DNA from: an uncultured bacterium
GTDB lineage: Bacteria; UBP7; UBA6624
Direction of reading: 5' to 3'
NCBI GenBank assembly: GCA_964517115.1
Contig: CAZFBE010000002.1
Location: forward strand, 6,862 to 70,861
Length of the DNA: 64,000 nt
Both the position numbers and the translations under genes were made by a program. The notes under the pieces are model-generated. The model had not been told where the DNA came from and did no database searches. It worked only from the letters and a program-made list of their open reading frames with translations. This document shows, in pieces, positions 1,209 through 27,909 of the stretch (positions are counted from its first letter, which is position 1; each line of letters begins with the position of its first letter).

Positions 1209-1553
1209 TTAAGATTCGTATATTATTGAGCAGTCTTGTACCAACCCATCTATATCCCAATAGTCTCTTGCTGTTGGCGTCATCAAGTGAACAATTGTGT
1301 CTCCAAGATCCAGCAAGGACCATTCTGATTCAGACTCCGATCCTTCGGGGGTGATGTTGAAGCCATTATTTTTAAGCCATTGTTTTACATTTTCTCTTAG
1401 TGTTTTTAAGTGAGTTTTGTTTTGTGCAGTTGCAATGATGAAATTTTTTGTCCAGGTCATTTTATTTTCAACATTTATCAATTTAACTTCTTCAGCAAAT
1501 TCATCTAAAAGCATTAAGCTTATTTTTTTCGGATCTAGTTTTTTTTCAGTCAT
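1209..1553 (-). CDS. rsfS: Ribosomal silencing factor RsfS (Iojap/DUF143 family)
   Basis: 114 aa. The C-terminal GDTIVHLMTPTARDYWDIDGL matches the RsfS consensus (VVHVFxPEAREFYxLE). It lies directly downstream of nadD in the conserved obg-nadD-rsfS arrangement. Confidence 0.8.
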   Translation of the reverse strand: MTEKKLDPKKISLMLLDEFAEEVKLINVENKMTWTKNFIIATAQNKTHLKTLRENVKQWLKNNGFNITPEGSESESEWSLLDLGDTIVHLMTPTARDYWDIDGLVQDCSIIYES

Positions 1554-1556
1554 TTT

Positions 1557-2369
1557 TTAGTTGATGTTTTTTGATATCCATTGATTTAAATCATCCATTT
1601 CTGGAGACCAGTAAGGACCCATGAATTTCCCTGGGAGTATTTCTGTTAATGGGGATTCCCCTAGAGTTCTCATCCCTAGAACTAACACTTCTTCCATTTT
1701 TAAATTGGTTTCAATGTTTTCAAGAAATTTACTAATTACAGATATTTTTTTCAGAACATCTGATTTGTGAAATTTTTTAAGAATTGCATGAGCTAGTTTT
1801 TGTTGTCTTTGTATTCTTCCTATGTCACCTAAAGAATCGTTTCTGAATCTTGCATACAAAACTGAATCTTTTCCATTTAAGGTGTGAATACCTGATTCAA
1901 AGTTGATCTTTAAGCTTTGAGACGTGTCTTCGTATTTGAGTTCTTTTTCTATATGAACTCTTACTCCGCCGAGGTCATCGATTAATTTCTCTAGGTCTTT
2001 AAAATTGATTACAAGATATCTATCAACTGTAATATTTGCCAAAGAGTTTAAAGCGCCTCTTAACCCCGTTATGTTTCCGTTATTGTGCCAACTATGGTTT
2101 ATTCTGTTTGTTCCATCTTGAGTTTCAACAAGCGTATCTCTTGGTATTGAAAGTATATTTGGAGCACCTCCCGATTTAGGCAAAGCTGCAAGCAGTATCG
2201 TGTCGGGATTTATATCTTCTTTTGACTGGTCAAGACCAACTATAAGAACTGTTTCTGCTCTTGTTTGTTTGTATTTTTTGAAACCTTCTGCAAAACTTGA
2301 TAAAAGAATAAAAAATATCAAACTGAGAAGCATTCCCAAGAAAGTCAAATTTAGGTATTTTTGTATCAT
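1557..2369 (-). CDS. LytR-CpsA-Psr (LCP) family protein
   Basis: 270 aa with an N-terminal TM helix, then PNILSIPRDTLVETQDG, GLRGALNSLANITVDRYLVINF and GIHTLNGKDSVLYARFRND, typical of the LCP domain. Confidence 0.7.
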   Translation of the reverse strand: MIQKYLNLTFLGMLLSLIFFILLSSFAEGFKKYKQTRAETVLIVGLDQSKEDINPDTILLAALPKSGGAPNILSIPRDTLVETQDGTNRINHSWHNNGNITGLRGALNSLANITVDRYLVINFKDLEKLIDDLGGVRVHIEKELKYEDTSQSLKINFESGIHTLNGKDSVLYARFRNDSLGDIGRIQRQQKLAHAILKKFHKSDVLKKISVISKFLENIETNLKMEEVLVLGMRTLGESPLTEILPGKFMGPYWSPEMDDLNQWISKNIN

Positions 2370-2926
2370 TTATAAAGACCTCTTTTGAGAATCTTTTCTT
2401 CAACAAGTTTTGGTAATAGGTTTTTCACAGATTTTTTTTCCTTAATTTTCCTTCTTATTTCAGAAGATGAAATTTCCATTATTTTAGATTTGAGAAATGT
2501 TGTTTTATTGTTTTTTTCAGATTCCATTCTTCTTGCTACAACTATATTACAGTTGTCAATTAATTCACTGTAGTTTTTCCAATTTTTTATATCTTTTAAA
2601 TTGTCTTCTCCAACCAAAAGAGATATTTTTTTATTTTCATGATTTTTTTTAACCCATCTGACTTGGTCTATTGAGTAACAGGTTTCATTTTTCTTTTTTT
2701 CAAAATCAGAAATTATGACGTTTTTCAACTGAGCCGTTCCTGCTTTGCAGAGCTGAATTCTTTCTTCAAATGATGCATGAAAATTTTTCCCTACAGGAGA
2801 GATATATGTAGGAATGACATAAATGGGTTTATATTTTTCCTTAATACAAGCATTGATCAACTCTAAATGCGCATTATGAAAAGGGTCAAAGGAGCCTCCA
2901 AAAATTAAAGGATTTATCCTGGCCAT
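2366..2926 (-). CDS. nadD: Nicotinate-nucleotide adenylyltransferase
   Basis: 186 aa. It carries the FGGSFDPFHNAHL (GxFDPxHxxH) nucleotidyltransferase signature at the N-terminus. Confidence 0.85.
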   Translation of the reverse strand: MARINPLIFGGSFDPFHNAHLELINACIKEKYKPIYVIPTYISPVGKNFHASFEERIQLCKAGTAQLKNVIISDFEKKKNETCYSIDQVRWVKKNHENKKISLLVGEDNLKDIKNWKNYSELIDNCNIVVARRMESEKNNKTTFLKSKIMEISSSEIRRKIKEKKSVKNLLPKLVEEKILKRGLYK

Positions 2927-3753
2927 TCTTTTATGCTTTTGATATTTTCAGAATCTACAGGTATTGAGGAGTTTTTATATGTATAAATTTTGGATTTTTT
3001 TGGCAAGATTTCTTTTATTTTTAAAAAATCTTTGATTTTTGTAAACCTTCCAACAAAAACAATTTTTTTTGCATTTTTTGTCTGATGGAGCCAATTTTTT
3101 ACTTCATTCAGAGATGGTATTAGAAGTATTTTTTCATTAATTTTCATCTTATTAACTTTAACTCCTATTATTGGATAACTAGGCATTGTCTTGTCATACT
3201 TTCTTCCTGTTAGTTTTTCATGGATAGAAAGAGAGGAGTTTGTATTGGATATTATTGCAGTATCACAAGGAATAAAATAATTCATGCTGAGGCTTTTCTC
3301 TTCTCCAGGTTTTCCTTTCGTTATTTTTTTCGGCGATCTGTTTACGGAACTTGCAAAAGACCTATTTCCCCTTCCTCCACGGCCACCTTTTAGAGTGAAT
3401 ATTTCTCCTGGTTTTTCAAGTTTTTTAATTAAGTCTTTTTTCAAATCCCTTAACTCTGTTCCAGTTGGAACTTTTAGGATTAGTTCTTTTCCATTTTTTC
3501 CACTTTTGTTATTTTTTCCACCACTAAACCCATTTTCAGCTTTTATAGGTTTGTTTTGTTTGAATTTGTATAAATCAAATACAGAATCATCGGCAACGAT
3601 AGAAAGGTTTCCACCTCGCCCTCCGTTTCCTCCGTCAGGGCCCATACTTGCTCTAAATTTTTGTCTTAGGAAAGAAGATCTTCCATCACCGCCATTCCCA
3701 GCGACTAAATGAATTTCAGTCGAATCTATGAATTTGTTGAAGAATTTACTCAG
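2914..3753 (-). CDS. obg: Obg-family protein with a degenerate (inactive-looking) GTPase domain. The track ORF starts at ATG 3645, but the conserved Obg N-terminus continues upstream to a probable CTG start at 3753..3751.
   Basis: The track ORF begins [12 protein letters not shown], which is internal in Obg. Translating upstream in frame gives (I)[42 protein letters not shown], matching the Obg N-terminus MKFVDEVKIHVKAGDGGNG..REKFVPKGGPDGGDGG. An in-frame TAG lies at 3759..3757 and there is no ATG/GTG/TTG in between. Downstream, the block [14 protein letters not shown] is conserved, but the P-loop, switch I, DxxG and NKxD positions read [17 protein letters not shown] and VGRFTKIKD. Confidence 0.7.
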
Positions 3754-4000
3754 AATCTATTTGTGCTACTTTTTTATTGCCTCTTTTGTTTACATATTTG
3801 ACTATGCCATTGTTTAATGCAAACAAAGTGTAATCTTTCCCAATTCCAACATCTTTACCAGGGTGTATATTTTTGCCCCTTTGTCTAACTAAAACATTTC
3901 CAGTTGAAACTTTTTGACCATCTGAACATTTGACGCCAAGACGTTTTCCTGCAGTTGATCTTAAATTCTTAGTACTTCCCTGACCTGTTTTATGCGCCAT
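3746..4000 (-). CDS. rpmA: 50S ribosomal protein L27
   Basis: 84 aa. [24 protein letters not shown]...VRQRG is the canonical L27 N-terminus. Confidence 0.9.
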
Positions 4001-4001
4001 A

Positions 4002-4316
4002 TTAACCCTCTATTTTTAAAACTTTTAATTGGGTGTATTCTTGTCTGTGGCCAATAATTCTTTTGTAGTTCTTTTTTGCTTTGTATTTTTGGACCCTGAC
4101 TTTTTTATCTTTGATGTGAGCAATAACTTCGCAAGTAACCTTTGCTTTTTCTACTAGAGGTTTTCCAATCTTGACTTTATCCTTATTTATTGTCATTAGG
4201 ATCTCTTTGTAAACAATTTTTTTGCCTTTTTCTTCAGCAACCTTGTCAACAAATACGGTTTCCCCTGAGCAAACTAACATTTGTGTTCCTGATGCTTTAA
4301 TAATTGCCTTCTTCAT
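4002..4316 (-). CDS. rplU: 50S ribosomal protein L21
   Basis: 104 aa. Its N-terminus [46 protein letters not shown] and the rplU-rpmA-obg order match L21. Confidence 0.9.
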
Positions 4317-4346
4317 ATCTTTAATAAAATAAACCCGTAATAGACT

Positions 4347-4352
4347 ATTATA
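4347..4352 (-). promoter_or_regulatory. Candidate -10 hexamer (TATAAT on the minus strand) for the rplU-rpmA-obg-nadD operon
   Basis: The plus-strand attata at 4347-4352 reads TATAAT on the minus strand, about 30 nt upstream of the rplU ATG. No convincing -35 was seen. Confidence 0.25.
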
Positions 4353-4460
4353 TAACTTTTTTTATGGAAAGATTTTTTGGACAGATAACGAACTTGGCTT
4401 TAGTGCTTGCTGTTGTTGGTTTCTTTCTTTGGTTTTTTTCAGCAAAGTTAAGAAAATAAA

Positions 4461-5897
4461 TTAATCCCCTCTCCAGAGAACAGCAATTAATGCTAGACAC
4501 ATTTCATCTAAAGAACTTGGTCCCAGCCTTACGTCAATAGGCTCATTAATATCGTCATATTCACTGAGTGCATAGGCAACGAAGGGGTTATTCATGGTGT
4601 TGTCGAAGGTGCATTTGAATTCAAGGGTATCTCCTCCCCTTATCCTTGGGACAAGCCATCTTCCACCAGGGTAACCAGTATCATAATAGTACATTCTTTG
4701 ATAATAGAAGTTGTAGTTTGGGGTTGCAATCAGGCATTCCTTTTTCTTTTGACCCTCTTCAGGGTTTTTTCGATGGAGGATAACTTCCATGTTGGTTCCT
4801 GTGTAGTGCATATGTGTCCCTATCCCAAAAATTGCTGTTTCGGGAAAGTTTTCTGGGAGTGTAAAGAGAATTGTTTCCTCATGACCCTTTACGTTTGCGG
4901 GAATTACAAAATCGGGATATCCTTTTTCATCATATGAACCTGGGACAAGGCCATTTGGAATTAGATTGTTGTCCTCATCAAGGCTATTGTCATGACTTGA
5001 GCCCCAAACCCAAACATAGGATTTCAGCAAAGGCTGTCTTTTTGTTATTTCAAGCTCAAGTATGCTTGAATCTTTTGGAGGTTCATCGTACTCTTGGTGA
5101 ATGTGGTAGTGTATTTGCATGATGATCTTAGATCCTTCAGGGATATGTATTCCAGATTCCTTTGGAGGGTCGTAAGGTGGGTATCCAGGATTCCATCCTC
5201 CTATCAAACTTACTTCAAAACCTACATCACCAAAGCAGTTGTAGTAACCTTTCTCGCCAGCTGTTTCAGATGATGCCCCCTTCTCGTCAAGCCATAATCC
5301 GACATGATGGACAACCTCGTTGTTTCCAGGAGTTATCCTGAAGTTTGTCATCCATGTGTCCCCCTCGATTTCTGGGTCAAGGACAAAGCACCTGAGCATG
5401 TCGTCTGTTCCTCCCCACTTTTCTCCAACAATCGTGTATTCGGGGATGCTCATTTTTATGTCCGACCTAAAGGGAACCTCTTTTTTCGTCTCTTTGTTTT
5501 TTTCAACCTTTTCACCCATGGGGAAATCAGAATCAATCCACTTTTCCAGAAGGAGTATCTCCCTTTGGGTCAGGGTGGGGTCATCTTTCCATCCAAGCTG
5601 GTTTGGTTCACATGTTTCCGTTTCTCCGGGACCCCATGGAGGCATCCTTTTTGCCTTGATTGCCCTCAGGGCACTCTTCGCCTTTTCTTTGACTTGGTCG
5701 TATGTTTCGAGAGAAAAGTCAGCAACATTCCCATCTGAATGGCATGAGATGCAGTGATCTGAGAATATTTCTGAGATGTGACCTTCCCATGTTACCTCTG
5801 ATTCAGCAAGCGTAAACTCTTCTTGGCTTGTTGCATTTTTTTCTTGACAGGAGTTGAAGATAAGAAAAAAAGAAAAAAGAAAGACTCTTTTCATCAT
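4461..5897 (-). CDS. Lipoprotein fusing a haem-c (CxxCH) domain to a PHM/DBH-like copper monooxygenase, copy A. The track ORF runs to 5921, but the likely start is M9 at 5897, which also removes the overlap with copy B.
   Basis: Signal plus lipobox-like MMKRVFLFSFFLIFNSC. A single haem-c motif CISCH is followed by RMPPWG. The copper-site ligands VVHHVGLW, MQIHYHIH, GTHMHYTG and SLDEMC align with the PHM/DBH CuH (HH...H) and CuM (HxH...M) sites. Confidence 0.7.
   Translation of the reverse strand: MMKRVFLFSFFLIFNSCQEKNATSQEEFTLAESEVTWEGHISEIFSDHCISCHSDGNVADFSLETYDQVKEKAKSALRAIKAKRMPPWGPGETETCEPNQLGWKDDPTLTQREILLLEKWIDSDFPMGEKVEKNKETKKEVPFRSDIKMSIPEYTIVGEKWGGTDDMLRCFVLDPEIEGDTWMTNFRITPGNNEVVHHVGLWLDEKGASSETAGEKGYYNCFGDVGFEVSLIGGWNPGYPPYDPPKESGIHIPEGSKIIMQIHYHIHQEYDEPPKDSSILELEITKRQPLLKSYVWVWGSSHDNSLDEDNNLIPNGLVPGSYDEKGYPDFVIPANVKGHEETILFTLPENFPETAIFGIGTHMHYTGTNMEVILHRKNPEEGQKKKECLIATPNYNFYYQRMYYYDTGYPGGRWLVPRIRGGDTLEFKCTFDNTMNNPFVAYALSEYDDINEPIDVRLGPSSLDEMCLALIAVLWRGD
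4476..5868. repeat. Direct tandem repeat, unit 1 (1393 bp, 100% identical to 5911..7303)
   Basis: The period is 1435 bp. Matching antisense ORFs (4698/6133, 4871/6306, 5304/6739, 5320/6755) and my line-by-line comparison show perfect identity. Flanks diverge at 4475/5910 and at 5869/7304. Confidence 0.9.
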
Positions 5898-5898
5898 T

Positions 5899-7335
5899 TT
5901 AGCTTTTATTGAGAACAGCAATTAATGCTAGACACATTTCATCTAAAGAACTTGGTCCCAGCCTTACGTCAATAGGCTCATTAATATCGTCATATTCACT
6001 GAGTGCATAGGCAACGAAGGGGTTATTCATGGTGTTGTCGAAGGTGCATTTGAATTCAAGGGTATCTCCTCCCCTTATCCTTGGGACAAGCCATCTTCCA
6101 CCAGGGTAACCAGTATCATAATAGTACATTCTTTGATAATAGAAGTTGTAGTTTGGGGTTGCAATCAGGCATTCCTTTTTCTTTTGACCCTCTTCAGGGT
6201 TTTTTCGATGGAGGATAACTTCCATGTTGGTTCCTGTGTAGTGCATATGTGTCCCTATCCCAAAAATTGCTGTTTCGGGAAAGTTTTCTGGGAGTGTAAA
6301 GAGAATTGTTTCCTCATGACCCTTTACGTTTGCGGGAATTACAAAATCGGGATATCCTTTTTCATCATATGAACCTGGGACAAGGCCATTTGGAATTAGA
6401 TTGTTGTCCTCATCAAGGCTATTGTCATGACTTGAGCCCCAAACCCAAACATAGGATTTCAGCAAAGGCTGTCTTTTTGTTATTTCAAGCTCAAGTATGC
6501 TTGAATCTTTTGGAGGTTCATCGTACTCTTGGTGAATGTGGTAGTGTATTTGCATGATGATCTTAGATCCTTCAGGGATATGTATTCCAGATTCCTTTGG
6601 AGGGTCGTAAGGTGGGTATCCAGGATTCCATCCTCCTATCAAACTTACTTCAAAACCTACATCACCAAAGCAGTTGTAGTAACCTTTCTCGCCAGCTGTT
6701 TCAGATGATGCCCCCTTCTCGTCAAGCCATAATCCGACATGATGGACAACCTCGTTGTTTCCAGGAGTTATCCTGAAGTTTGTCATCCATGTGTCCCCCT
6801 CGATTTCTGGGTCAAGGACAAAGCACCTGAGCATGTCGTCTGTTCCTCCCCACTTTTCTCCAACAATCGTGTATTCGGGGATGCTCATTTTTATGTCCGA
6901 CCTAAAGGGAACCTCTTTTTTCGTCTCTTTGTTTTTTTCAACCTTTTCACCCATGGGGAAATCAGAATCAATCCACTTTTCCAGAAGGAGTATCTCCCTT
7001 TGGGTCAGGGTGGGGTCATCTTTCCATCCAAGCTGGTTTGGTTCACATGTTTCCGTTTCTCCGGGACCCCATGGAGGCATCCTTTTTGCCTTGATTGCCC
7101 TCAGGGCACTCTTCGCCTTTTCTTTGACTTGGTCGTATGTTTCGAGAGAAAAGTCAGCAACATTCCCATCTGAATGGCATGAGATGCAGTGATCTGAGAA
7201 TATTTCTGAGATGTGACCTTCCCATGTTACCTCTGATTCAGCAAGCGTAAACTCTTCTTGGCTTGTTGCATTTTTTTCTTGACAGGAGTTGAAAATAAGA
7301 AATAGGAAAATAAGAGTTATTTTTTTTATCTCCAT
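5899..7335 (-). CDS. Lipoprotein fusing a haem-c (CxxCH) domain to a PHM/DBH-like copper monooxygenase, copy B
   Basis: 478 aa. It is identical to copy A from ...FNSCQEK through ...ALIAVL. Only the signal peptide (MEIKKITLIFLFLIFNSC) and the last 3-4 residues differ. Confidence 0.7.
   Translation of the reverse strand: MEIKKITLIFLFLIFNSCQEKNATSQEEFTLAESEVTWEGHISEIFSDHCISCHSDGNVADFSLETYDQVKEKAKSALRAIKAKRMPPWGPGETETCEPNQLGWKDDPTLTQREILLLEKWIDSDFPMGEKVEKNKETKKEVPFRSDIKMSIPEYTIVGEKWGGTDDMLRCFVLDPEIEGDTWMTNFRITPGNNEVVHHVGLWLDEKGASSETAGEKGYYNCFGDVGFEVSLIGGWNPGYPPYDPPKESGIHIPEGSKIIMQIHYHIHQEYDEPPKDSSILELEITKRQPLLKSYVWVWGSSHDNSLDEDNNLIPNGLVPGSYDEKGYPDFVIPANVKGHEETILFTLPENFPETAIFGIGTHMHYTGTNMEVILHRKNPEEGQKKKECLIATPNYNFYYQRMYYYDTGYPGGRWLVPRIRGGDTLEFKCTFDNTMNNPFVAYALSEYDDINEPIDVRLGPSSLDEMCLALIAVLNKS
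5911..7303. repeat. Direct tandem repeat, unit 2
   Basis: Same evidence as unit 1. Confidence 0.9.
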
Positions 7336-9284
7336 GTTTCTATCTCCTCTGCCATGGCTTCAATTCTGTCTCTTAATGCTGCAGCCAACTCGAATTCAAG
7401 ATTATCTGCATGTAAAAGCATTTCTTTTTCCATTTTTTGAACAAGTTTCATACCTTTGCTGTAATCTTTTGAACTCATTGATTCTTCTTCTCCAATCAAA
7501 AACAATTTACTCATTTTTATAGATTTTTTTATACTTTTAGGTTTCTTATTATTCTTTTTATTATATTCTTTCTGAATTTCTCTTCTTCTTGAGGTTTCTC
7601 CTATAGCTTCACTCATTGAAGGGCTTATTGAATCAGCATAAAGAACAACCTTTCCATTTAAATGCCTTGATGCTCTTCCAATAATCTGTATTAGAGACTT
7701 TGTGCTTCTTAAAAAACCTTGTTTATCTGCATCTAATATTGCAATAGTTGAAACTTCTGGGAGGTCCAAGCCTTCTCTTAGGAGGTTGACTCCAACCAAG
7801 CAATCAATTTTTCCAGATCTCAATTGGTGTATTATTTTTATTCTTTCAAGTGTTTTTACTTTTGCATGGAGCCATCCAGAATTTATATTTCTTTCTTGTA
7901 GAAATTCTGAAATTTCTTCTGACATTTTTTGAGTAAGGGCTATTATCAAAACCCTATCTCCCTTTGATTTTGCTTTTTTTATCTCCTTCAAAATGTGGTT
8001 GACCTGATTGCTTCTTGAGTGAATTTCTATTTTTGGATCAATTAGGTATGTAGGTCGAATAATTTGTTCAGTTATTTTTTCTGAATTTTCAATTTCCCAA
8101 GATCCTGGTGTTGCAGAGACAAAAAGAGTTTTATTTGTTTTTTTCATCAATTCATCAAAGTTTAATGGTCTATTGTCGTAGGCAGAAGGCAATCTAAAAC
8201 CATGGTCTATCAGGGATTTTTTTCTAGACCTATCTCCTTTTGGCATTCCTTTAAATTGAGGTATTGATACATGGCTTTCATCGATTATTGTGAGAAAGTC
8301 TTTTGGAAAGAAATCTACCAAGCACGTAGGAGGCTCACCTTTTTTCCTTTGTTGAAAATGTCTTGAGTAATTTTCAATACCTTTAACAGTTCCAAAAGTT
8401 TGTATTTGCTCAAGGTCATAAAGAGTTTTTTCTCTAATCCTTTCTGCTTCTATCATTTTTTCTTCTTTTTTGAAGGAACTCTCACGGATCTTCATTTCTT
8501 CTTTTATTTCGCAAAATATTTTTTCTCTATTTTTGTCATTCACTACATGCAATGTTGACGGAAATATGGTTACCTTCTCTTCAGAAGATATCTTTTCTCT
8601 CGAAATTGTATGAATTTTTTTTATCGATTCAATTTCATTTCCAAACCATTCAATGAGTATTGAGTTCTCCTCTTCAGGGGTTTTTATTTTCATTGTGTCA
8701 TTTTGTCTTTCAAATGTGCCATTGCTGATTGAGCCTGTTTCATAAACATAACCCATTGAAACCAATCTTTTTCCAATGTCTTTTGGCTCTATTAGGTCAC
8801 CCTTTTTTATTGGCAGGATTTTATTTAAATAATCTTTAGGTGCTCCTATTCCGTAAACACTTGAGACCGTTCCTATTATGACTGAATGTTTTGATGTAAT
8901 TAAGTTTTTTACTGCTTGATGCCTCAATCTTTCAATTTCTGTATTTATTTTTGCATCTTTTTCGATATATTTATTTTCATGAACTATGTAAGCTTCTGGT
9001 TGATAGTAGTCATAATAGGAAACAAAATATCCAACAGCATTATTCGGAAAAAAAGTTTTAAATTCTTCGTAAAGTTGTGCAGCGAGTGTTTTGTTATGTG
9101 TTAAAACCAATGTAGGCAAACCCAGTGATTGAATAACATTTGAAACCGTATAGGTTTTCCCACTTCCAGTAACTCCTAACAGTGTTTGTTTTTTTGAGCC
9201 TTCTTCAAAACCTTTTACTATGCTTTTGATTGCCTTTGGCTGATCTCCGGTTGGAGAAAATTGAGTTTTTAGATTAAAGTTCAC
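7326..9284 (-). CDS. uvrB: Excinuclease ABC subunit B
   Basis: 652 aa. N-terminal FSPTGDQPKAI..LLGVTGSGKTYT (Walker A) plus helicase motifs and a C-terminal UVR domain (ELAAALRDRIEAM). Confidence 0.9.
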   Translation of the reverse strand: MNFNLKTQFSPTGDQPKAIKSIVKGFEEGSKKQTLLGVTGSGKTYTVSNVIQSLGLPTLVLTHNKTLAAQLYEEFKTFFPNNAVGYFVSYYDYYQPEAYIVHENKYIEKDAKINTEIERLRHQAVKNLITSKHSVIIGTVSSVYGIGAPKDYLNKILPIKKGDLIEPKDIGKRLVSMGYVYETGSISNGTFERQNDTMKIKTPEEENSILIEWFGNEIESIKKIHTISREKISSEEKVTIFPSTLHVVNDKNREKIFCEIKEEMKIRESSFKKEEKMIEAERIREKTLYDLEQIQTFGTVKGIENYSRHFQQRKKGEPPTCLVDFFPKDFLTIIDESHVSIPQFKGMPKGDRSRKKSLIDHGFRLPSAYDNRPLNFDELMKKTNKTLFVSATPGSWEIENSEKITEQIIRPTYLIDPKIEIHSRSNQVNHILKEIKKAKSKGDRVLIIALTQKMSEEISEFLQERNINSGWLHAKVKTLERIKIIHQLRSGKIDCLVGVNLLREGLDLPEVSTIAILDADKQGFLRSTKSLIQIIGRASRHLNGKVVLYADSISPSMSEAIGETSRRREIQKEYNKKNNKKPKSIKKSIKMSKLFLIGEEESMSSKDYSKGMKLVQKMEKEMLLHADNLEFELAAALRDRIEAMAEEIETWR

Positions 9285-9287
9285 CTT

Positions 9288-9974
9288 TCAGCCAGGTTTA
9301 GAACTGCCTTCTTTCAAACAAAAAACAGATACAACTTCAAGGGTTTTTTTCTCTAAGTCTTGCAAACTGCCATTGTTTTTTATCACAGCATCAGATATTA
9401 AGCTCCTTTCTTTTTCGGTTGATTGAGATTTTTCTATAGCAAGGAATTCTTCTTTTGTTAGTTTGTTTTTGTATCTTTTTAAGGTTCTATGAAGTCTTTT
9501 TTCTTGTTTTGCCTCAACAGTAATGATTTTCTTGAAATGTTTTTCAAGCCCTGATTTGACCAAGATTGGTATTTCACAAATCAAGTTTTTTTCATTTGAC
9601 TTGATTAAAGATACACATTGTTTTTTTATTACTGGATGAATGATGCTTTCTAAAAAAGACAATTTCTTTTTGTTGGAAAAAACTATTTTTCTTAATTTTT
9701 CTTTATCAAGATTTTTTTTATTTTCCCCTTTTGTTACAAATGCTTCAGGAATTTTCGTTTTTAGCTTTTCTTGAATTTCTTTCCTTAAGTAAAGGTTGTG
9801 AACTTCTTTATCAGCACTGTAGGTATCAAATCCAATTCTTTTAAAGATGTCTAAAACGGTTGATTTTCCGGATCCAAATGAGCCCGTTAGGCCAATTGTT
9901 AAATTTTTACTCAAAATCTTTGAGAAGTTCTGACAATGTTTGTCCACCCTCAGCTTTATCTCCAAACGTTTCAC
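9288..9974 (-). CDS. coaE: Dephospho-CoA kinase. The start is uncertain: an in-frame TTG at 9914..9912 would give the typical short N-terminus.
   Basis: GLTGSFGSGKST P-loop plus a DxD-like motif. The ATG ORF overlaps the upstream S1 gene by 68 nt. Confidence 0.7.
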   Translation of the reverse strand: MKRLEIKLRVDKHCQNFSKILSKNLTIGLTGSFGSGKSTVLDIFKRIGFDTYSADKEVHNLYLRKEIQEKLKTKIPEAFVTKGENKKNLDKEKLRKIVFSNKKKLSFLESIIHPVIKKQCVSLIKSNEKNLICEIPILVKSGLEKHFKKIITVEAKQEKRLHRTLKRYKNKLTKEEFLAIEKSQSTEKERSLISDAVIKNNGSLQDLEKKTLEVVSVFCLKEGSSKPG

Positions 9975-11046
9975 CTCTGGGTTTTTTTGATTCTTCTTTT
10001 GTAATCAAGGATAAAGAAAGTTTTTTATTTTCCTTGTCTACATTTTTAATTCTTGCTTCAACCTTTCCCCCAGCCTTTTCTTTAAAGTTTTCCGGGATTT
10101 CTGACTCATGAACAAATCCTTCTATTCCATTTTTTAAAGATACAAATAGACCAAATTTTGTTTTATTTGAAATTGTCCCACTTACCCAGGTTTCTTTTTC
10201 TAAGATTTCGCTATTCCAAGGGTTTTCCCTTGTCATGTTGTAACTAGTGTCTATTTGCATTTTTTCTTTATTTATCTTTGTTATCTTGACTTCAATTTCC
10301 TGACCTTCTTTGAAAATGTTTTTAAGATCTCCACCCCCCCAGGTAGCTTCATTTCTGTGAAGAAATAAATTTGCTCCATTTGAATTAAGGATGATTCCGA
10401 AAGCCTTATTTTTTTGAGATAAAAATCTTTTAATTTTTGCTTTCACTATTGAATTTTCTGGATTCGACAAGATGAATTGAGAAAACTGTTTATTCTTTTT
10501 TTCTTCAAGATAGGCGATTCTTGAAACTATTGCATCATTTTTTTTCATTTCTTTGACTAAAAACTTAACATTCCTCCCAATAAGTACGTCTAGGTTTCTA
10601 GGGGGGCTTTTTTCATAAAGAGATCGTGGCATAAATAGCAACCTTCCATTGAGGTTAACCATCATTCCTACCTGTTGTTTGGTTTTGTTCAAAACAATTT
10701 TTTCAATCTTTCCAGAAAGGGGCTCTTTGTTTTTGAAGGAGTTTTCAAGCATTTTTGCAGATTCTTTTTCTACTATTCTTTTTCTACTTACAATAATTTT
10801 TTCTCGATTTGTTCTTATTATCTCTACTTTTAAAGATTCGCCTGTTTTAATGTTTTTTAAATCATCTCCAATTTGGTCTTTTGGAAGCCAAGCATCATTT
10901 TTTAAGCCGAGAGAAAGTATTATCCCGTTTTCGTCTTTTTGTACAACTTTTCCATTCCTCTCGTCTCCTTTTTGGGGGTTCTCAAAATCCAAAAAGTCTT
11001 TCTCTATGTTGTTTGTTTCTTTTTCAGAATTCATATTTTTTTCCAA
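9907..11046 (-). CDS. S1 RNA-binding-domain protein (short ribosomal-protein-S1-like)
   Basis: 379 aa with repeated S1-like segments (GQEIEVKITKINKEK.., VSGTISNKTKFGLFVSLKNGIEGFVHESEI, GESLKVEIIRTNREKIIVS). Confidence 0.55.
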   Translation of the reverse strand: MEKNMNSEKETNNIEKDFLDFENPQKGDERNGKVVQKDENGIILSLGLKNDAWLPKDQIGDDLKNIKTGESLKVEIIRTNREKIIVSRKRIVEKESAKMLENSFKNKEPLSGKIEKIVLNKTKQQVGMMVNLNGRLLFMPRSLYEKSPPRNLDVLIGRNVKFLVKEMKKNDAIVSRIAYLEEKKNKQFSQFILSNPENSIVKAKIKRFLSQKNKAFGIILNSNGANLFLHRNEATWGGGDLKNIFKEGQEIEVKITKINKEKMQIDTSYNMTRENPWNSEILEKETWVSGTISNKTKFGLFVSLKNGIEGFVHESEIPENFKEKAGGKVEARIKNVDKENKKLSLSLITKEESKKPRGETFGDKAEGGQTLSELLKDFE

Positions 11047-13489
11047 TTTTTATACCAACCCTCAAAGGGACTTTCAATTCTAAAGCTTTTTCCATTGCTT
11101 TTTTTGCTTTTTCAACACTCCTTTCTAAAACATTGTCAGATACATGAAATACGAGTTCATCATGTACCTGGAGAATTAGTTCAAATTCTTGATTTAAATT
11201 ATGGAAAATTTTAACCATAGCTCTTTTTATAAGATCGGAACTTCCACCCTGAACACAGTTATTGACAGCTTGTCTTTCGGCTTGTTGTCTCATGAAACTA
11301 TTTGGGCTGCCTAAACCTTCTACGTATCTTCTTCTGCCATCTAGCGTTTCTGTGTACAGGTTTTGGTTTGCTTTTTCTTTTGTTTCCTTTATCCAACTAT
11401 AAACACCATTAAATTTTTCAAAATATTTCTTTATTTCGTTTTTCGAGCGCTCAACAGATATTCCCAGCTGTTTCGATAATGCGCTTGCACCCATTCCGTA
11501 AATAATTCCAAAATTAATAATTTTTGCAATCCTTCTGTCATCTTGTGTTATTTCTTTCTTATCTTTTTTAAACATTAGAGAAGCTGTTTGAGAATGAACA
11601 TCTTCGTCTTTGTTGAAAATTTCTATTAGCTTTTCATCTTCTGAAAGGTGTGCTAAAACTCTAAGGTCAATTTGTGAGTAGTCTATAGAAACTATTGAGA
11701 AGTTTTCTTTTGCCTCCACACAGCTGCGAATCATTCTTCCTTCATTTGTTTTTATTGGGAGAACCTGGAAATTAGGATCTTTTGATGCCAGCCTCCCGCT
11801 TCTTGTTCCATATGGGTCGAAGTTTGGGTGTATTCTTCCATTGTCTTTTTGGTGCTGTATAAAAGGCTTTATGTAAGATGAAAGGAGTTTATGCTTCTCC
11901 CTGTATTTGATAATTTCTTCTATTATTGGATGTTTTCCAAGAAGGCTATTCAATGCTTCTCTATTTGTACTTTTCCCATGTTTTGATTTCAGGTTTAATT
12001 TTTCAAAAAGGATTTCCCCAACCTGCTTCGGACTTCTTGGGTTGAAGTTTGTTTCAGAGATTTTTTTCATTTTCGCCTCTATCTCCAAGCACTCAAGGTT
12101 GAATTTTTCCTCAAGTTTTTTCACTTCTTTTACATTAATTGGAACACCTGTATTCTTCATTTTTTCAACTGCTAGAAGAAAAGGTTTTTCTATTTTTTTG
12201 TAGTAGTTTTTTATAGTTTTTTCTCCAATTTTTTTTTCTAAGATTTGTTGTAATTGTTTGAACTTGCTTATACACACTGAGGGATCTTCCGGAAATTGCT
12301 CATTAAAGATATTGTTCCATGTTTTTTGAATTGAGGGATTTTCTGAGTTTAGGAAAAAAGCATATGACTTTAGATCCAATGCATTTTCAAAATCAGAATG
12401 AAATATATTTATTTTTTTGTTGTAGAAATCAAACCCAATGATTTCATGTTTGTTGTTGAGGTAATCTTTGATGTTTGTTTCTGTTGCAAAAAGACCTTCA
12501 TCCTCTTTTGGTCCAAAAGTAATATTTTCAGTCTGACATATCCATGAATTTCCATATGGCATCAAGTGCACAAAAGAAGTTTTATCCAGTTCTGTCTTTA
12601 TGTCCTCTGGCTCAAGTTTTTTAATCTCTATCTGTTTTTCTTCTTTTAAGACGAATGATGTCATGCCTAACTTTTTTAATATTTTTTGAGCAGGTTTATT
12701 AGAGAGGTTGAAGGGTTTTAAATTCCCAATTTGAATATCTAAATCATCATCCAGGGTTGCTAATTTTTTACAAAAATAAGCTGACTCTTTGTCGTTTTGA
12801 AGTTTCTTTTTTTGTGAGTCGGGAAGGTCCTGTAGATTCTTGTAAACGTCATCCAGATCTTTATATTTTTTCAATAGTATTTTTGCTGTTTTCTCACCTA
12901 TTCCTTTGACTCCTTTTAGATTGTCTGAAGAATCTCCGACAAGGCCTTTGAAGTCAGGTATTAAATCTGGATTAAATCCATATTCCTCAAAAAGAGTATT
13001 TTTTGTTATTAGCTTAATTTGTGAAATAGACCTTCCAGACCTGAGGATGGACACGCCTGGCTCCAGGGTTTGAAGTAGGTCTTTGTCGTTGCTGACGATG
13101 ATGGGGTTTATTTTTTCTTTGAGTAGGCTTTTTGAAACTGATGCCAATACGTCATCTGCTTCATGTCCTGGAAATTCTATAGACTTTACATCAAGCTCTT
13201 TCAAAAAAAATTTGAAAAATTTTATTTGATTCAGAAGGTTTTCTGGAGTGTCAGGCCTCCCAGCTTTGTATTCTGGATACTCTTTTTTCCTCCATGTAGG
13301 AACAGATGAATCTAATGCAACGATTATTGTTTTTGGCTTGTATTTTTTATTGAGAGAATCTAAAGTTCTAACAAATCCAAAAAGTGCATTTGTAGGATCT
13401 CCTGCAGGAGATTGCATGTTTGGAGGGAGACTGTAAAAAGCCCTAAAGAGAAGATTTAAACCATCTATCAGTAAGGCTTTTTCACTCAA
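11024..13489 (-). CDS. polA: DNA polymerase I
   Basis: 821 aa. It has the 5-prime nuclease N-terminus (LLIDGLNLLFRAFYSLP), the polymerase motifs RRIAKIINFGIIYGMGASALSKQLG and QVHDELVFH, and a reduced middle (3-5 exo) region. Confidence 0.9.
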   Translation of the reverse strand: MSEKALLIDGLNLLFRAFYSLPPNMQSPAGDPTNALFGFVRTLDSLNKKYKPKTIIVALDSSVPTWRKKEYPEYKAGRPDTPENLLNQIKFFKFFLKELDVKSIEFPGHEADDVLASVSKSLLKEKINPIIVSNDKDLLQTLEPGVSILRSGRSISQIKLITKNTLFEEYGFNPDLIPDFKGLVGDSSDNLKGVKGIGEKTAKILLKKYKDLDDVYKNLQDLPDSQKKKLQNDKESAYFCKKLATLDDDLDIQIGNLKPFNLSNKPAQKILKKLGMTSFVLKEEKQIEIKKLEPEDIKTELDKTSFVHLMPYGNSWICQTENITFGPKEDEGLFATETNIKDYLNNKHEIIGFDFYNKKINIFHSDFENALDLKSYAFFLNSENPSIQKTWNNIFNEQFPEDPSVCISKFKQLQQILEKKIGEKTIKNYYKKIEKPFLLAVEKMKNTGVPINVKEVKKLEEKFNLECLEIEAKMKKISETNFNPRSPKQVGEILFEKLNLKSKHGKSTNREALNSLLGKHPIIEEIIKYREKHKLLSSYIKPFIQHQKDNGRIHPNFDPYGTRSGRLASKDPNFQVLPIKTNEGRMIRSCVEAKENFSIVSIDYSQIDLRVLAHLSEDEKLIEIFNKDEDVHSQTASLMFKKDKKEITQDDRRIAKIINFGIIYGMGASALSKQLGISVERSKNEIKKYFEKFNGVYSWIKETKEKANQNLYTETLDGRRRYVEGLGSPNSFMRQQAERQAVNNCVQGGSSDLIKRAMVKIFHNLNQEFELILQVHDELVFHVSDNVLERSVEKAKKAMEKALELKVPLRVGIKIGKKYEF

Positions 13490-26183: not shown

Positions 26184-27775
26184 TTTTTAACCCTTACACA
26201 GTTTTTCCCTTCAGATTTTGCAACATACAAACATTCATCAGCAACAGATATTATTTCATTTAGAGTATTTCCACTTTCAGGATATGTTGCAACTCCTATC
26301 GAGACTGTGAAGTTGATTTTTTCATCATCATTTACTGGAATTGATATATTTTGAATTTCTTTCAATAGTTTTTCAGCTGCTTTTTCTGTATTTTTGGAGT
26401 CAGACTCGAGTAAAAGGAGCATGAATTCTTCACCACCGTAGCGTCCTGACAAATCTCCTGCTCTTGATCTTTTTTGAATGTATTCGGCAAGGTTTTTCAA
26501 AACCTCATCACCAATTTGATGTCCATAAGTGTCATTAATTTCTTTGAAATTATCAACATCAAGCATCATTATGCTAAAGGTTCCTTCATATCTTTTTGAT
26601 CTTTCAAGTTCAATGTTTCCTAGCTCAAAAAATCTCCTTCTGTTGAGGAGGTTTGTTAAGCTGTCTGTTTGTGCTAGAAGTCTTAACTCTTCTTGTAAGT
26701 TTTTATTTTCCAGTATCCTTGAAAAATCTTTTGCTGCAACTTCGAAGAAGGTGTTGTCACGATTGTTAAATGATGATGAAGCTGATTTCATTAAAGCCAA
26801 AAATCCTACCCTTGAGTTTCTTTCAAAAAGATGTGTAATGATCATGCTTTTGGGTCGAATGTCTTCGACAACTGCCTTTGGCTCTTTCGGAAACTGGAAT
26901 AAACCTTCGGGAAAATTTGTTTTTGAAACTTTTGCTATATCTTCCCAATTAAAAGGACTTAAGGAATTGCGATTCTTTTTTTTCTTGAATATGTTCAAAA
27001 GAGCGTCTAGCAGCTCCGGGTCATGTGTATTTGATTGAGATATTAATGTTTCAGCTGTTTTTTTAGAAAATCTCAGAAAGTGATCTGGATTTTTTTCTAG
27101 TTTAATTTCTTTGTTCTTGTTGGAATAAAACATTATTGCGTAGTCGGCATCCAGTGCTTCATATAATTTTTCTAAAAATATTTCAGCTAAATCTTCTGGT
27201 GAATTTGTCATTTCTGAAATGTTTTTAAGCAAGGAGAGTTCAGCAACCTGCCTTTCAAAATGCTCTCTAAAAACAGAATGATATCTTTTTAAGGTTTCAT
27301 TAAATATTATTTCAAGTTTTTCTTTTTTAAGGTGAATGTCAAAAGCCTCTTTTTCCTCTTTGGAAAGTAAGTTTTTGAAAGTTTTTACACATTTCCAAAA
27401 TGCTTTGTCAATATTTGAAGGATCTATGTCTTTCTCAATCCAGTAATCAAAGTTTTTTTTAATTAGTATTGTTACCTGGTTATCCTTCATTGAGAGGATT
27501 GTTCTGTCAAAAGATGAAAAAACACCAAAAATAAAATCTCCCAATAACTGCCTGATGGATTCAATTGAGTTTTCAGGAAATAAATCTGAGAATTCTTTTG
27601 GAGGCTTGCTTGTAAACTCAATTAGATATTTTCTTAAAATCGTTCTAAGAAAATCATATTTATATTCAATATTTTTTTTCACTTGTAATAATTTTATAGG
27701 TTGTAATGCTCTTATTAGGATAGAATTGCTTTTATTCTGACGCGGGGTGGAGCAGTGGTAGCTTGTCGGGCTCAT
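26180..27775 (-). CDS. GGDEF diguanylate cyclase with a 350-aa N-terminal sensory region. The start is uncertain because the ATG at 27775 is the antisense of the tRNA-fMet anticodon.
   Basis: LTNLLNRRRFFE..DVDNFKEINDTYGHQIGDEVL..RYGGEEFMLLL (GGEEF active site). The first 35 nt of the ORF overlap tRNA-fMet on the other strand. Confidence 0.75.
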   Translation of the reverse strand: MSPTSYHCSTPRQNKSNSILIRALQPIKLLQVKKNIEYKYDFLRTILRKYLIEFTSKPPKEFSDLFPENSIESIRQLLGDFIFGVFSSFDRTILSMKDNQVTILIKKNFDYWIEKDIDPSNIDKAFWKCVKTFKNLLSKEEKEAFDIHLKKEKLEIIFNETLKRYHSVFREHFERQVAELSLLKNISEMTNSPEDLAEIFLEKLYEALDADYAIMFYSNKNKEIKLEKNPDHFLRFSKKTAETLISQSNTHDPELLDALLNIFKKKKNRNSLSPFNWEDIAKVSKTNFPEGLFQFPKEPKAVVEDIRPKSMIITHLFERNSRVGFLALMKSASSSFNNRDNTFFEVAAKDFSRILENKNLQEELRLLAQTDSLTNLLNRRRFFELGNIELERSKRYEGTFSIMMLDVDNFKEINDTYGHQIGDEVLKNLAEYIQKRSRAGDLSGRYGGEEFMLLLLESDSKNTEKAAEKLLKEIQNISIPVNDDEKINFTVSIGVATYPESGNTLNEIISVADECLYVAKSEGKNCVRVKK

Positions 27776-27815
27776 AACCCGAAGGTCGCAGGTTCGAATC
27801 CTGCCCCCGCACCCA
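27741..27815 (+). tRNA. Initiator tRNA-fMet, anticodon CAT
   Basis: CGCGGGGTGGAGCAGTGGTAGCTTGTCGGGCTCATAACCCGAAGGTCGCAGGTTCGAATCCTGCCCCCGCACCCA is near-identical in outline to E. coli tRNA-fMet. It has the C1xA72 mismatch and three G-C pairs in the anticodon stem. Confidence 0.8.
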
Positions 27816-27821
27816 GGTTTT

Positions 27822-27895
27822 GGCAGCGTAGCTCAGCTGGTTAGAGCGTCCGGCTCATACCCGGGAGGTCCTCGGTTCAAGTCCGAGCGCTGCTA
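27822..27895 (+). tRNA. tRNA with a CAT anticodon: elongator tRNA-Met or tRNA-Ile2 (lysidine)
   Basis: GGCAGCGTAGCTCAGCTGGTTAGAGCGTCCGGCTCATACCCGGGAGGTCCTCGGTTCAAGTCCGAGCGCTGCTA. The T-loop TTCAAGTCC resembles Ile2-type tRNAs and the gene lies immediately upstream of tilS. Identity cannot be settled by eye. Confidence 0.65.
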
Positions 27896-27909
27896 TTTGC
27901 CTAAAGAGT

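Follow-up and report, generated by a model that had tools for sequence, protein, structure and literature searches.

How do two adjacent bacterial genes come to carry the same sequence over almost their entire length while starting and ending differently? The question is raised by a 64-kb stretch of DNA from an uncultured bacterium (contig CAZFBE010000002.1 of assembly GCA_964517115.1; hereafter the window, with all coordinates given on its forward strand), where two genes read on the minus strand lie head to tail. Gene A (5899..7335; 478 amino acids, tail NKS*) and its tandem paralogue gene B (4461..5897; 478 amino acids from the first ATG and 477 from the second, signal peptide MMKRVFLFSFFLIFNSC, tail WRGD*) each encode a predicted lipoprotein that joins a cytochrome c domain to a PHM/DBH-like domain. 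Comparison with related genomes indicates that A and B are very probably two ancient tandem paralogues that have been recurrently homogenised by interlocus gene conversion. The 100% identity of their cores, as given by the assembly, is an upper bound.

The direct repeat has a period of 1435 nt and is the sole repeat of at least 60 nt within the window. A base-by-base comparison at this offset shows unbroken identity of 4476–5858 with 5911–7293, that is 1383 bp, an exact repeat beyond the reach of chance. The initial annotation was right about a perfect repeat with this period but placed its length at 1393 bp, which takes in mismatches at 5859/7294 and 5868/7303. The identical core runs from Phe15 to Leu475 in gene A (5911..7293, minus strand; gene positions 43–1425) and occupies 4476..5858 (minus strand) in gene B. 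Identity had been thought to begin exactly after the lipobox cysteine; it begins at codon 15, so that Cys18 and the three preceding residues of the Phe-Asn-Ser-Cys18 lipobox lie inside the repeat, and the codon directly 5′ of the core shows only a synonymous ATT/ATC change. At the other end, identity stops after Leu475, leaving four codons before the stop in B (WRGD*), as annotated, but three in A (NKS*); across the core the two window copies show 0 differences, followed by 8 in the last 12 nt. The signal peptides (MEIKKITLIFLFLI versus MMKRVFLFSFFLI) and the C-terminal tails do differ between the genes, as had been stated. The two cores are separated by a unique junction J (5859..5910, minus strand), in which the final three codons of A and its stop are followed, after a 1-nt spacer, by the signal-peptide codons specific to B. 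The array is bounded by the A-specific head (signal-peptide codons 1–14; 7294..7335, minus strand), which is orthologous between genomes and not homogenised with B, and by the B-specific tail WRGD* (4461..4475, minus strand), orthologous to the W[RK]GD tails of relatives.

Comparison of related genomes for one copy or two, as the initial annotation had suggested, shows that at least 12 independent assemblies, produced by different pipelines from uncultured marine relatives, carry the A–junction–B array, and that some others have just one gene, with the head of A and the tail of B. Two neighbours serve as synteny anchors, uvrB upstream (7326..9284, minus strand) and rplU, encoding ribosomal protein L21, downstream (4002..4316, minus strand). 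The order uvrB–A–junction–B–rplU, or a contig broken inside the array, occurs at loci L001, L002, L003, L004, L006, L007, L008, L009, L025, L026, L027, L029 and L030, and the architecture of the junction is shared by L001, L002, L003, L004, L006, L007, L008, L025, L026, L027 and L029. A scan of genome contigs gave only two close relatives, and a scan of JGI metagenomes gave four loci, none of them long-read. In the relatives, gene A has an MxxKK-type head and an NKS-stop tail, and gene B an MKR/MKK-type head and a W[RK]GD-stop tail. Flanking sequences range in identity to the window from ~75% (L002, L003) through 93–95% (L001, L008) to 98.8–100% (L006, L025, L028). Because orthologous heads, tails, junction and synteny are present in lineages whose flanks are only ~75% identical, the duplication is old and predates the divergence of the compared genomes.

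The cores of the two genes tell a different history from their ends. Variable sites were classified over four sequences, the A and B copies of the window and those of L001 (flanks 94.8% and 93.3% identical to the window), according to whether they group the sequences by genome or by orthologue. Each of the 143 variable sites in the core unites the two copies of a genome, and none unites orthologues, whereas in the head the pattern is inverted (0 by genome, 10 by orthologue) and in the tail nearly so (1 against 7). The same holds for other comparisons, with 21 core sites by genome and 0 by orthologue between the window and L006, and 10–12 head sites by orthologue and 0 by genome overall. The L001 copies are identical to each other over ~1345 nt and differ by 11% from the window copies; more generally, A and B are 100% identical within genomes over 1345–1383 nt and 88–89% identical between genomes. 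The 563-nt segment c1 alone contains 52 genome-specific substitutions. Independent drift to this extent would have put a difference between A and B about every 11 nt, leaving them with no 55-mer in common and unable to form a repeat in an assembly graph. The near-identity of A and B, as judged from these site patterns, therefore appears to be real and younger than the species split.

The limits of the homogenised tract are sharp and vary among strains. The cleanest tract boundary is that of the L003/L029 lineage, where the identity of the two copies (L029_A compared with L003_B) changes abruptly, from 60% in the head to 99.5% over columns 55–610 of the alignment (553/556) and 73.9% from column 611. 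Contigs of four assemblies begin 50–98 nt ahead of the first A/B difference in this lineage (column 606), where de Bruijn contigs would be expected to break if the exact repeat is a true one. On its 3′ side the identical tract extends to column 1217 in L006, 1316 in L008, 1383 in L001, ~1400 in L028 and 1428 in the window, even though the flanks of L028 are 100.000% (2389 nt) and 99.90% (3985 nt) identical to those of the window. L008, L026 and L027 likewise have flanks 99.86–99.96% identical to L001. Within this group, copy A of L027 is B-type up to column 1363 and continues into the A tail, and the B copies of L001 and L026 are A-type up to that column and continue into the B tail; these are reciprocal recombinants, with the switch falling inside one 22-nt interval. 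The distance from these end points to the unique tail is shorter than a 55-mer, so that bubble collapse at that k could not have made them; k = 55 is the value inferred for those assemblies, and linkage might have been lost at a smaller k of a multi-k run. The end points are taken to exist in the reads. Conversion would then act in both directions, and on the time scale that separates near-clonal strains.

The core pattern of 143 sites to none, the sharp tract ends and the strain-variable 3′ end points bear out the ongoing gene conversion between paralogues that the initial annotation had proposed. Homologous recombination between the direct repeats, presumably of the RecA type, would copy sequence from one gene to the other with no reciprocal exchange. 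Stretches of either copy would be overwritten by the other, in both directions and with tract ends that differ from strain to strain, and the signal-peptide head, the last three to four codons and the junction would escape, since homology ends there. In the genome of the window, the converted tract would span codon 15 to codon 475.

Several observations weigh against so simple an account. All sequences are short-read (meta)genome assemblies, in which a repeat edge is emitted twice and is identical by construction. Two sets of assemblies with near-identical flanks (99.9–100%), namely L001/L008/L026/L027 and window/L025/L028, differ in whole A-type or B-type patches, and the two copies match in every assembly that holds both. 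As the same patch is found in both copies, true conversion would require that each near-clonal strain had undergone an opposite conversion. The mosaics could owe something to recombination between strains as well.

The patches are as follows, each on the minus strand. Patch p0/p1 (6562..6733 in copy A, residues ~201–258; 5127–5298 in B) is B-type in both window copies (GFEVSLIGGWNPGYPPY) and A-type in the near-clonal L025 and L028 (EVPATLLAGWLPGINGV). Patch p2 (6402..6504, residues ~278–312; 4967–5069 in B) is A-type in both window copies, and its type alternates among assemblies of the sister species. Patch p3 (6237..6321; 4802–4886 in B) flanks His363-Met-His365 and is A-type in the window and B-type in both L006 copies. 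Patch p4 (6094..6128, residues ~403–414; 4659–4693 in B) is A-type in both window copies, and the B copy of L006 stays B-type. Each patch version has its counterpart in the resolved L003 lineage, where the A-type sits in A and the B-type in B as sequence specific to that gene. Among assemblies of two species the four patches occur in the combinations BAAA (the window), BABA, AAAA, BBAB, ABBA, BBAA and AAAB; they reassort among assemblies almost freely. The divergence of both versions of each patch runs parallel to that of the species, which implies that both persisted in every lineage, and the simplest reading is that one version resides in A and the other in B of each genome.

Part of the identity may thus have been made by the assembler, a proposition that we regard as evenly balanced. 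It holds that long exact segments are common to A and B in the cell, yet that the genes differ in internal patches, p0/p1 being the likeliest, and perhaps at a few single sites, and that a de Bruijn assembler merged the resulting bubbles and walked the repeat edge twice through a loop R–J–R; it is compatible with real conversion elsewhere in the gene. When a graph assembler resolves a simple loop, one edge is written out twice. The assemblies offer much that fits. L001 and L008 differ at ~12–15 sites in ~18.5 kb of flank against ~105 sites per gene copy, and the latter are limited to three patches (columns 638–777, with a 9-nt indel, 836–938 and 1212–1246) that are the same in both copies of each genome. 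L025, with flanks 99.83% identical to the window, and L028 carry the other p0/p1 version. The nearly free reassortment of the patches goes together with internal agreement of the copies in 6/6 assemblies that hold both, a private ‘FCDV’ variant included. The identical segments between patches measure 58–108 nt, above k = 55, so that the patches would form bubbles in a k = 55 graph. Contigs end 55–118 nt into the repeat (L002, L007, L025); in the L027 scaffold (~2215–2224), ten Ns stand in for all of copy B from the end of its signal-peptide codons to the sequence that follows the gene; single genes with an A head and a B tail occur (L005, L028 and proteins P0125 and P0135); and two JGI contigs (L032, L033) change species in mid-gene.

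Such behaviour is documented, in that metaSPAdes deliberately collapses larger bulges into a consensus (PMC8021871), and identical copies, a random choice of patches between assemblies of one strain, contig breaks, N-gaps and chimeras, the expected marks of bulge collapse and reuse of a repeat edge, are all seen here. What bulge collapse cannot create are the junction, the concerted substitutions found across long exact stretches, and end points that lie within k of unique sequence. Three further points speak for real homogenisation of the patches. Fully converted pairs are common at the tail-proximal, resolvable patch p5, where 4/6 pairs are A-type in both copies, which makes full homogenisation plausible. 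In the chimeric single copies P0125 and L028, a B tail follows A-type patches, which would point to full conversion of B copies if a large k was used. At columns 1269/1272/1302 the window is mixed on a fine scale, which a choice of bubble between two fixed haplotypes leaves unexplained. On balance there is about an even chance that the window copies truly differ somewhere within the 1383 bp, and p0/p1 is the stretch most likely to do so. The assembly artefact that the initial annotation had offered as an alternative thus fails as a falsely doubled single gene, given the junction in at least 12 assemblies and the diverged copies of L003; in its subtler form of bubble collapse it is perhaps probable. 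An argument from heterogeneous pairs being seen only at tail-proximal, resolvable sites was dropped, conversion being expected to be rarer near the edge of homology.

The converse possibility, that the patches record real, fast and bidirectional segmental conversion, with near-clonal cells holding different homogenised combinations of four or five cassettes, one of which flanks the candidate CuM His-Met-His motif, is improbable. If true, the tandem genes would be mutual donors that generate combinatorial variation of an envelope-anchored lipoprotein enzyme, the face of the envelope being one that signal peptide and lipobox do not tell. It would be analogous to the cassette-based variation of surface proteins, except that two full-length expressed genes are involved here.

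A copy number other than two is an unlikely alternative to the two-gene array. Unequal crossing-over would give one-copy (A head, B tail) and three-copy (A, B-head/A-tail, B) arrays in the population or in this genome, and both predicted products are seen as sequences: single chimeras, and B-head/A-tail genes with junctions on both sides in L032 and L033. Moreover, the output of a graph assembler would be the same for any copy number of at least two. A single A-head/B-tail gene lies between uvrB and rplU in L005/L031 (10001–11437) and L028 (2390–3829), with P0125 and P0135 as the corresponding proteins; these fit deletion by unequal crossing-over and loop-skipping by the assembler equally. The middle genes of L032 and L033, for their part, turn 100% or near-100% identical to a co-occurring species partway along, and their two junctions are of different types. 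They were considered as proof of three-copy arrays and rejected as such, because difference counts per 100 columns (14 full bins and a short final one) show the switch to the co-occurring species; L032 and L033 are most likely inter-species chimeric contigs. Both are short JGI contigs (L032 1–2086, Ga0117901_1075687; L033 1–1762, Ga0118716_1081352), with junction types TGAAACAATG and TAAAATGATG, and they bring to light a third lineage at species level (‘NTPNQ’ type), which has a junction of its own. The A head of this lineage is also found in P0130, from a 528-nt ENA contig; its C-terminal ‘CLLYTSPSPRDKRQSRMPSSA’ resembles translated sequencing adapter, which would have been left untrimmed at the end of this public contig.

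It is similarly doubtful that the mosaics stem mainly from homologous recombination between strains or species, that is from imported alleles, and not from copy-to-copy exchange. The clustering of differences between close strains in patches, rather than their scatter, and the co-occurrence of several related species in the same samples would suit import. However, L001 and L008 differ only at sites where A-type and B-type differ, with no donor-specific single-nucleotide polymorphisms between the patches or in the junction. Import alone does not put the same change in both copies, and the concerted pattern of 143 to 0 requires exchange within genomes. The remaining explanations are negligible. 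The very recent tandem duplication envisaged in the initial annotation, leaving no time to diverge, would suit the 1383-bp identity of the window viewed alone, but the same array with distinct heads, tails and junction already exists in lineages with flanks 75–94% identical, heads and tails follow the orthologue pattern, and in one lineage the copies are just 74–76% identical over the 3′ two-thirds. An assembler that falsely doubled a single-copy gene, to which the single A-head/B-tail genes of L005/L031, L028, P0125 and P0135 might point, has equally little to commend it, since the junction, with A tail, 1-nt spacer and B signal peptide, is unique sequence that must exist in the reads, and the L003-lineage copies are clearly distinct genes.

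The product of both genes is a predicted lipoprotein in which an N-terminal c-type cytochrome domain is fused to a two-copper monooxygenase domain of the PHM/DBH type, an assignment that draws on Pfam matches, invariant residues and the fold of an AlphaFold2 (AF2) model. An identical copy of protein A is present in the public collection (P0121), as is the 477-residue form of B that starts at the second ATG (P0129), on the same NCBI contig as P0121. The match of the query to Cu2_monoox_C (PF03712) is borderline (23.3 bits, cut-off 23), and that to Cytochrome_CBB3 falls short of the threshold (21.8 bits, cut-off 27), so that the evidence for the cytochrome is at the level of motifs. The 961 homologues found include many with precomputed matches to PF01082, PF03712 or PF13442. 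An alignment of 58 of them shows as invariant C50-x-x-C53-H54, M86, H198-H199, H264, H266, H363-M364-H365, M467 and several cysteines. These comprise a CxxCH haem-attachment motif with its distal ligand (C50, C53, H54 and M86) and candidate CuH and CuM ligands (H198, H199, H264, H266, H363, H365 and M467) in the order expected along the sequence. At the N terminus, every close relative has a hydrophobic stretch followed by [FL]-[NTAS]-S-C18, and almost no family member lacks C18, a motif that suggests a lipoprotein signal.

The AF2 model built on the 58-homologue alignment has a mean predicted local distance difference test score (pLDDT) of 84 and a predicted template-modelling score (pTM) of 0.80. 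In a Foldseek search with this model, the top 31 Protein Data Bank (PDB) chains are rat PHM and human DBH, with E values from 1.9e-17 to 1.4e-12 and target-normalised template-modelling scores of 0.38–0.74; a profile search against PDB sequences gave no solved relative and one spurious match. The predicted protein shares with these copper type II ascorbate-dependent monooxygenases the two-domain β-sandwich core, which matches PHM and DBH at target-normalised scores of 0.65–0.74; the His-His, His-x-His, His-Met-His and late Met residues, invariant in the present family, are candidates for the corresponding copper ligands. It differs from them in its low sequence identity (~16%) and in the addition of the N-terminal CxxCH cytochrome c domain and the lipoprotein signal. 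This arrangement suggests that the fused haem, rather than ascorbate, may serve as electron donor.

The protein has few close relatives (77–99% identity), each of them from a marine metagenome; below these come homologues at ~40% identity in Myxococcota (Sorangium, Enhygromyxa, and metagenome-assembled genomes (MAGs) of Polyangiaceae and Kofleriaceae), and identity is 24% in Planctomycetota. The haem c–PHM/DBH-like lipoprotein is widespread in Myxococcota and Planctomycetota MAGs and may merit a study of its own. The host itself is a deep, sparsely sampled lineage, because the identity of its UvrB, 78–99% within a handful of marine metagenome contigs, falls to 51% outside that clade (Romboutsia, Firmicutes and others). 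The duplicated genes have a GC content of 0.42–0.43 and a GC content at third codon positions (GC3) of 0.41, compared with a GC3 of 0.21–0.32 in ten neighbouring genes (1209–13489). In the 3′ part, GC content is 0.416 in the window, where this part is fully converted, and 0.376–0.384 in the L003 lineage, where it is unconverted. The elevated GC could come from GC-biased gene conversion or from a foreign origin, the distant homologues being found in high-GC Myxococcota.

The genes around the array are tightly packed and lie on one strand, in the order polA, a gene for an S1-domain protein, coaE, uvrB, A, B, rplU, rpmA, an Obg-like gene, nadD, a LytR-family gene and rsfS. Gene A begins within the end of uvrB, with an overlap of 10 nt (7326–7335), and A and B themselves are just 1 nt apart, stop to ATG (5897–5899). 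No obvious Shine–Dalgarno sequence is found upstream of B, which together with the tight packing suggests translational coupling or Shine–Dalgarno-independent initiation. A and B would be transcribed within a unit that extends from uvrB to rplU; promoter and terminator scans of the coding strand gave nothing above the shuffled expectation. The Obg-like open reading frame (2914–3645, minus strand) encodes at most 243 amino acids with no apparent GTPase domain; its relatives have a precomputed Pfam match to the N-terminal GTP1_OBG domain only, and the short form is kept in L001, L003, L026, L027 and L030. Elsewhere, two tRNA-Met (CAT) genes lie side by side, 5 nt apart (27741–27896, plus strand), among four tRNAs in all, and the 64-kb window has no rRNA.

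Taken together, the array offers a clean natural case of long-lasting concerted evolution of a head-to-tail gene pair in an uncultured, deep-branching marine bacterial lineage, with tract ends that move between near-clonal strains. It also carries a warning that perfect identity of tandem genes in short-read and metagenome assemblies is to be read as an upper bound. For this family, studies of copy number, pangenomes or selection that draw on these MAGs would go astray unless checked against reads. Collapsed differences between paralogues, skipped loops and chimeras can be brought out by setting several assemblies of one strain side by side.

A close parallel is provided by tufA and tufB of Salmonella and Escherichia coli, the textbook case of concerted evolution by RecA-dependent gene conversion. 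As there, the paralogues are closer to each other within a genome than to their orthologues in other genomes, the duplication is older than the species, and tracts have sharp ends. The tuf genes, however, are dispersed, whereas A and B are head-to-tail direct repeats 1 nt apart, so that recombination can also delete or amplify them; and tuf encodes a translation factor, whereas the present genes encode an accessory lipoprotein enzyme, and their concerted evolution is documented by metagenome assemblies only. Among prokaryotic paralogues concerted evolution is well established, and a survey of it has been made (PMC6053082). Mosaic tandem paralogues under interlocus gene conversion are exemplified by HMA4 of Arabidopsis halleri (PMC3749932; bioRxiv 10.1101/2025.10.29.685298, a model of 2025), a tandem array that likewise shows long homogenised stretches broken by differing islands. 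HMA4 differs in belonging to a eukaryote and in having documented selection for dosage, whereas the islands of A and B, read from assemblies, may or may not persist within one genome. By comparison with these systems, the mechanism is ordinary and well known, and the pair of the window is a new and unusually well-resolved example of it, not a new mechanism.

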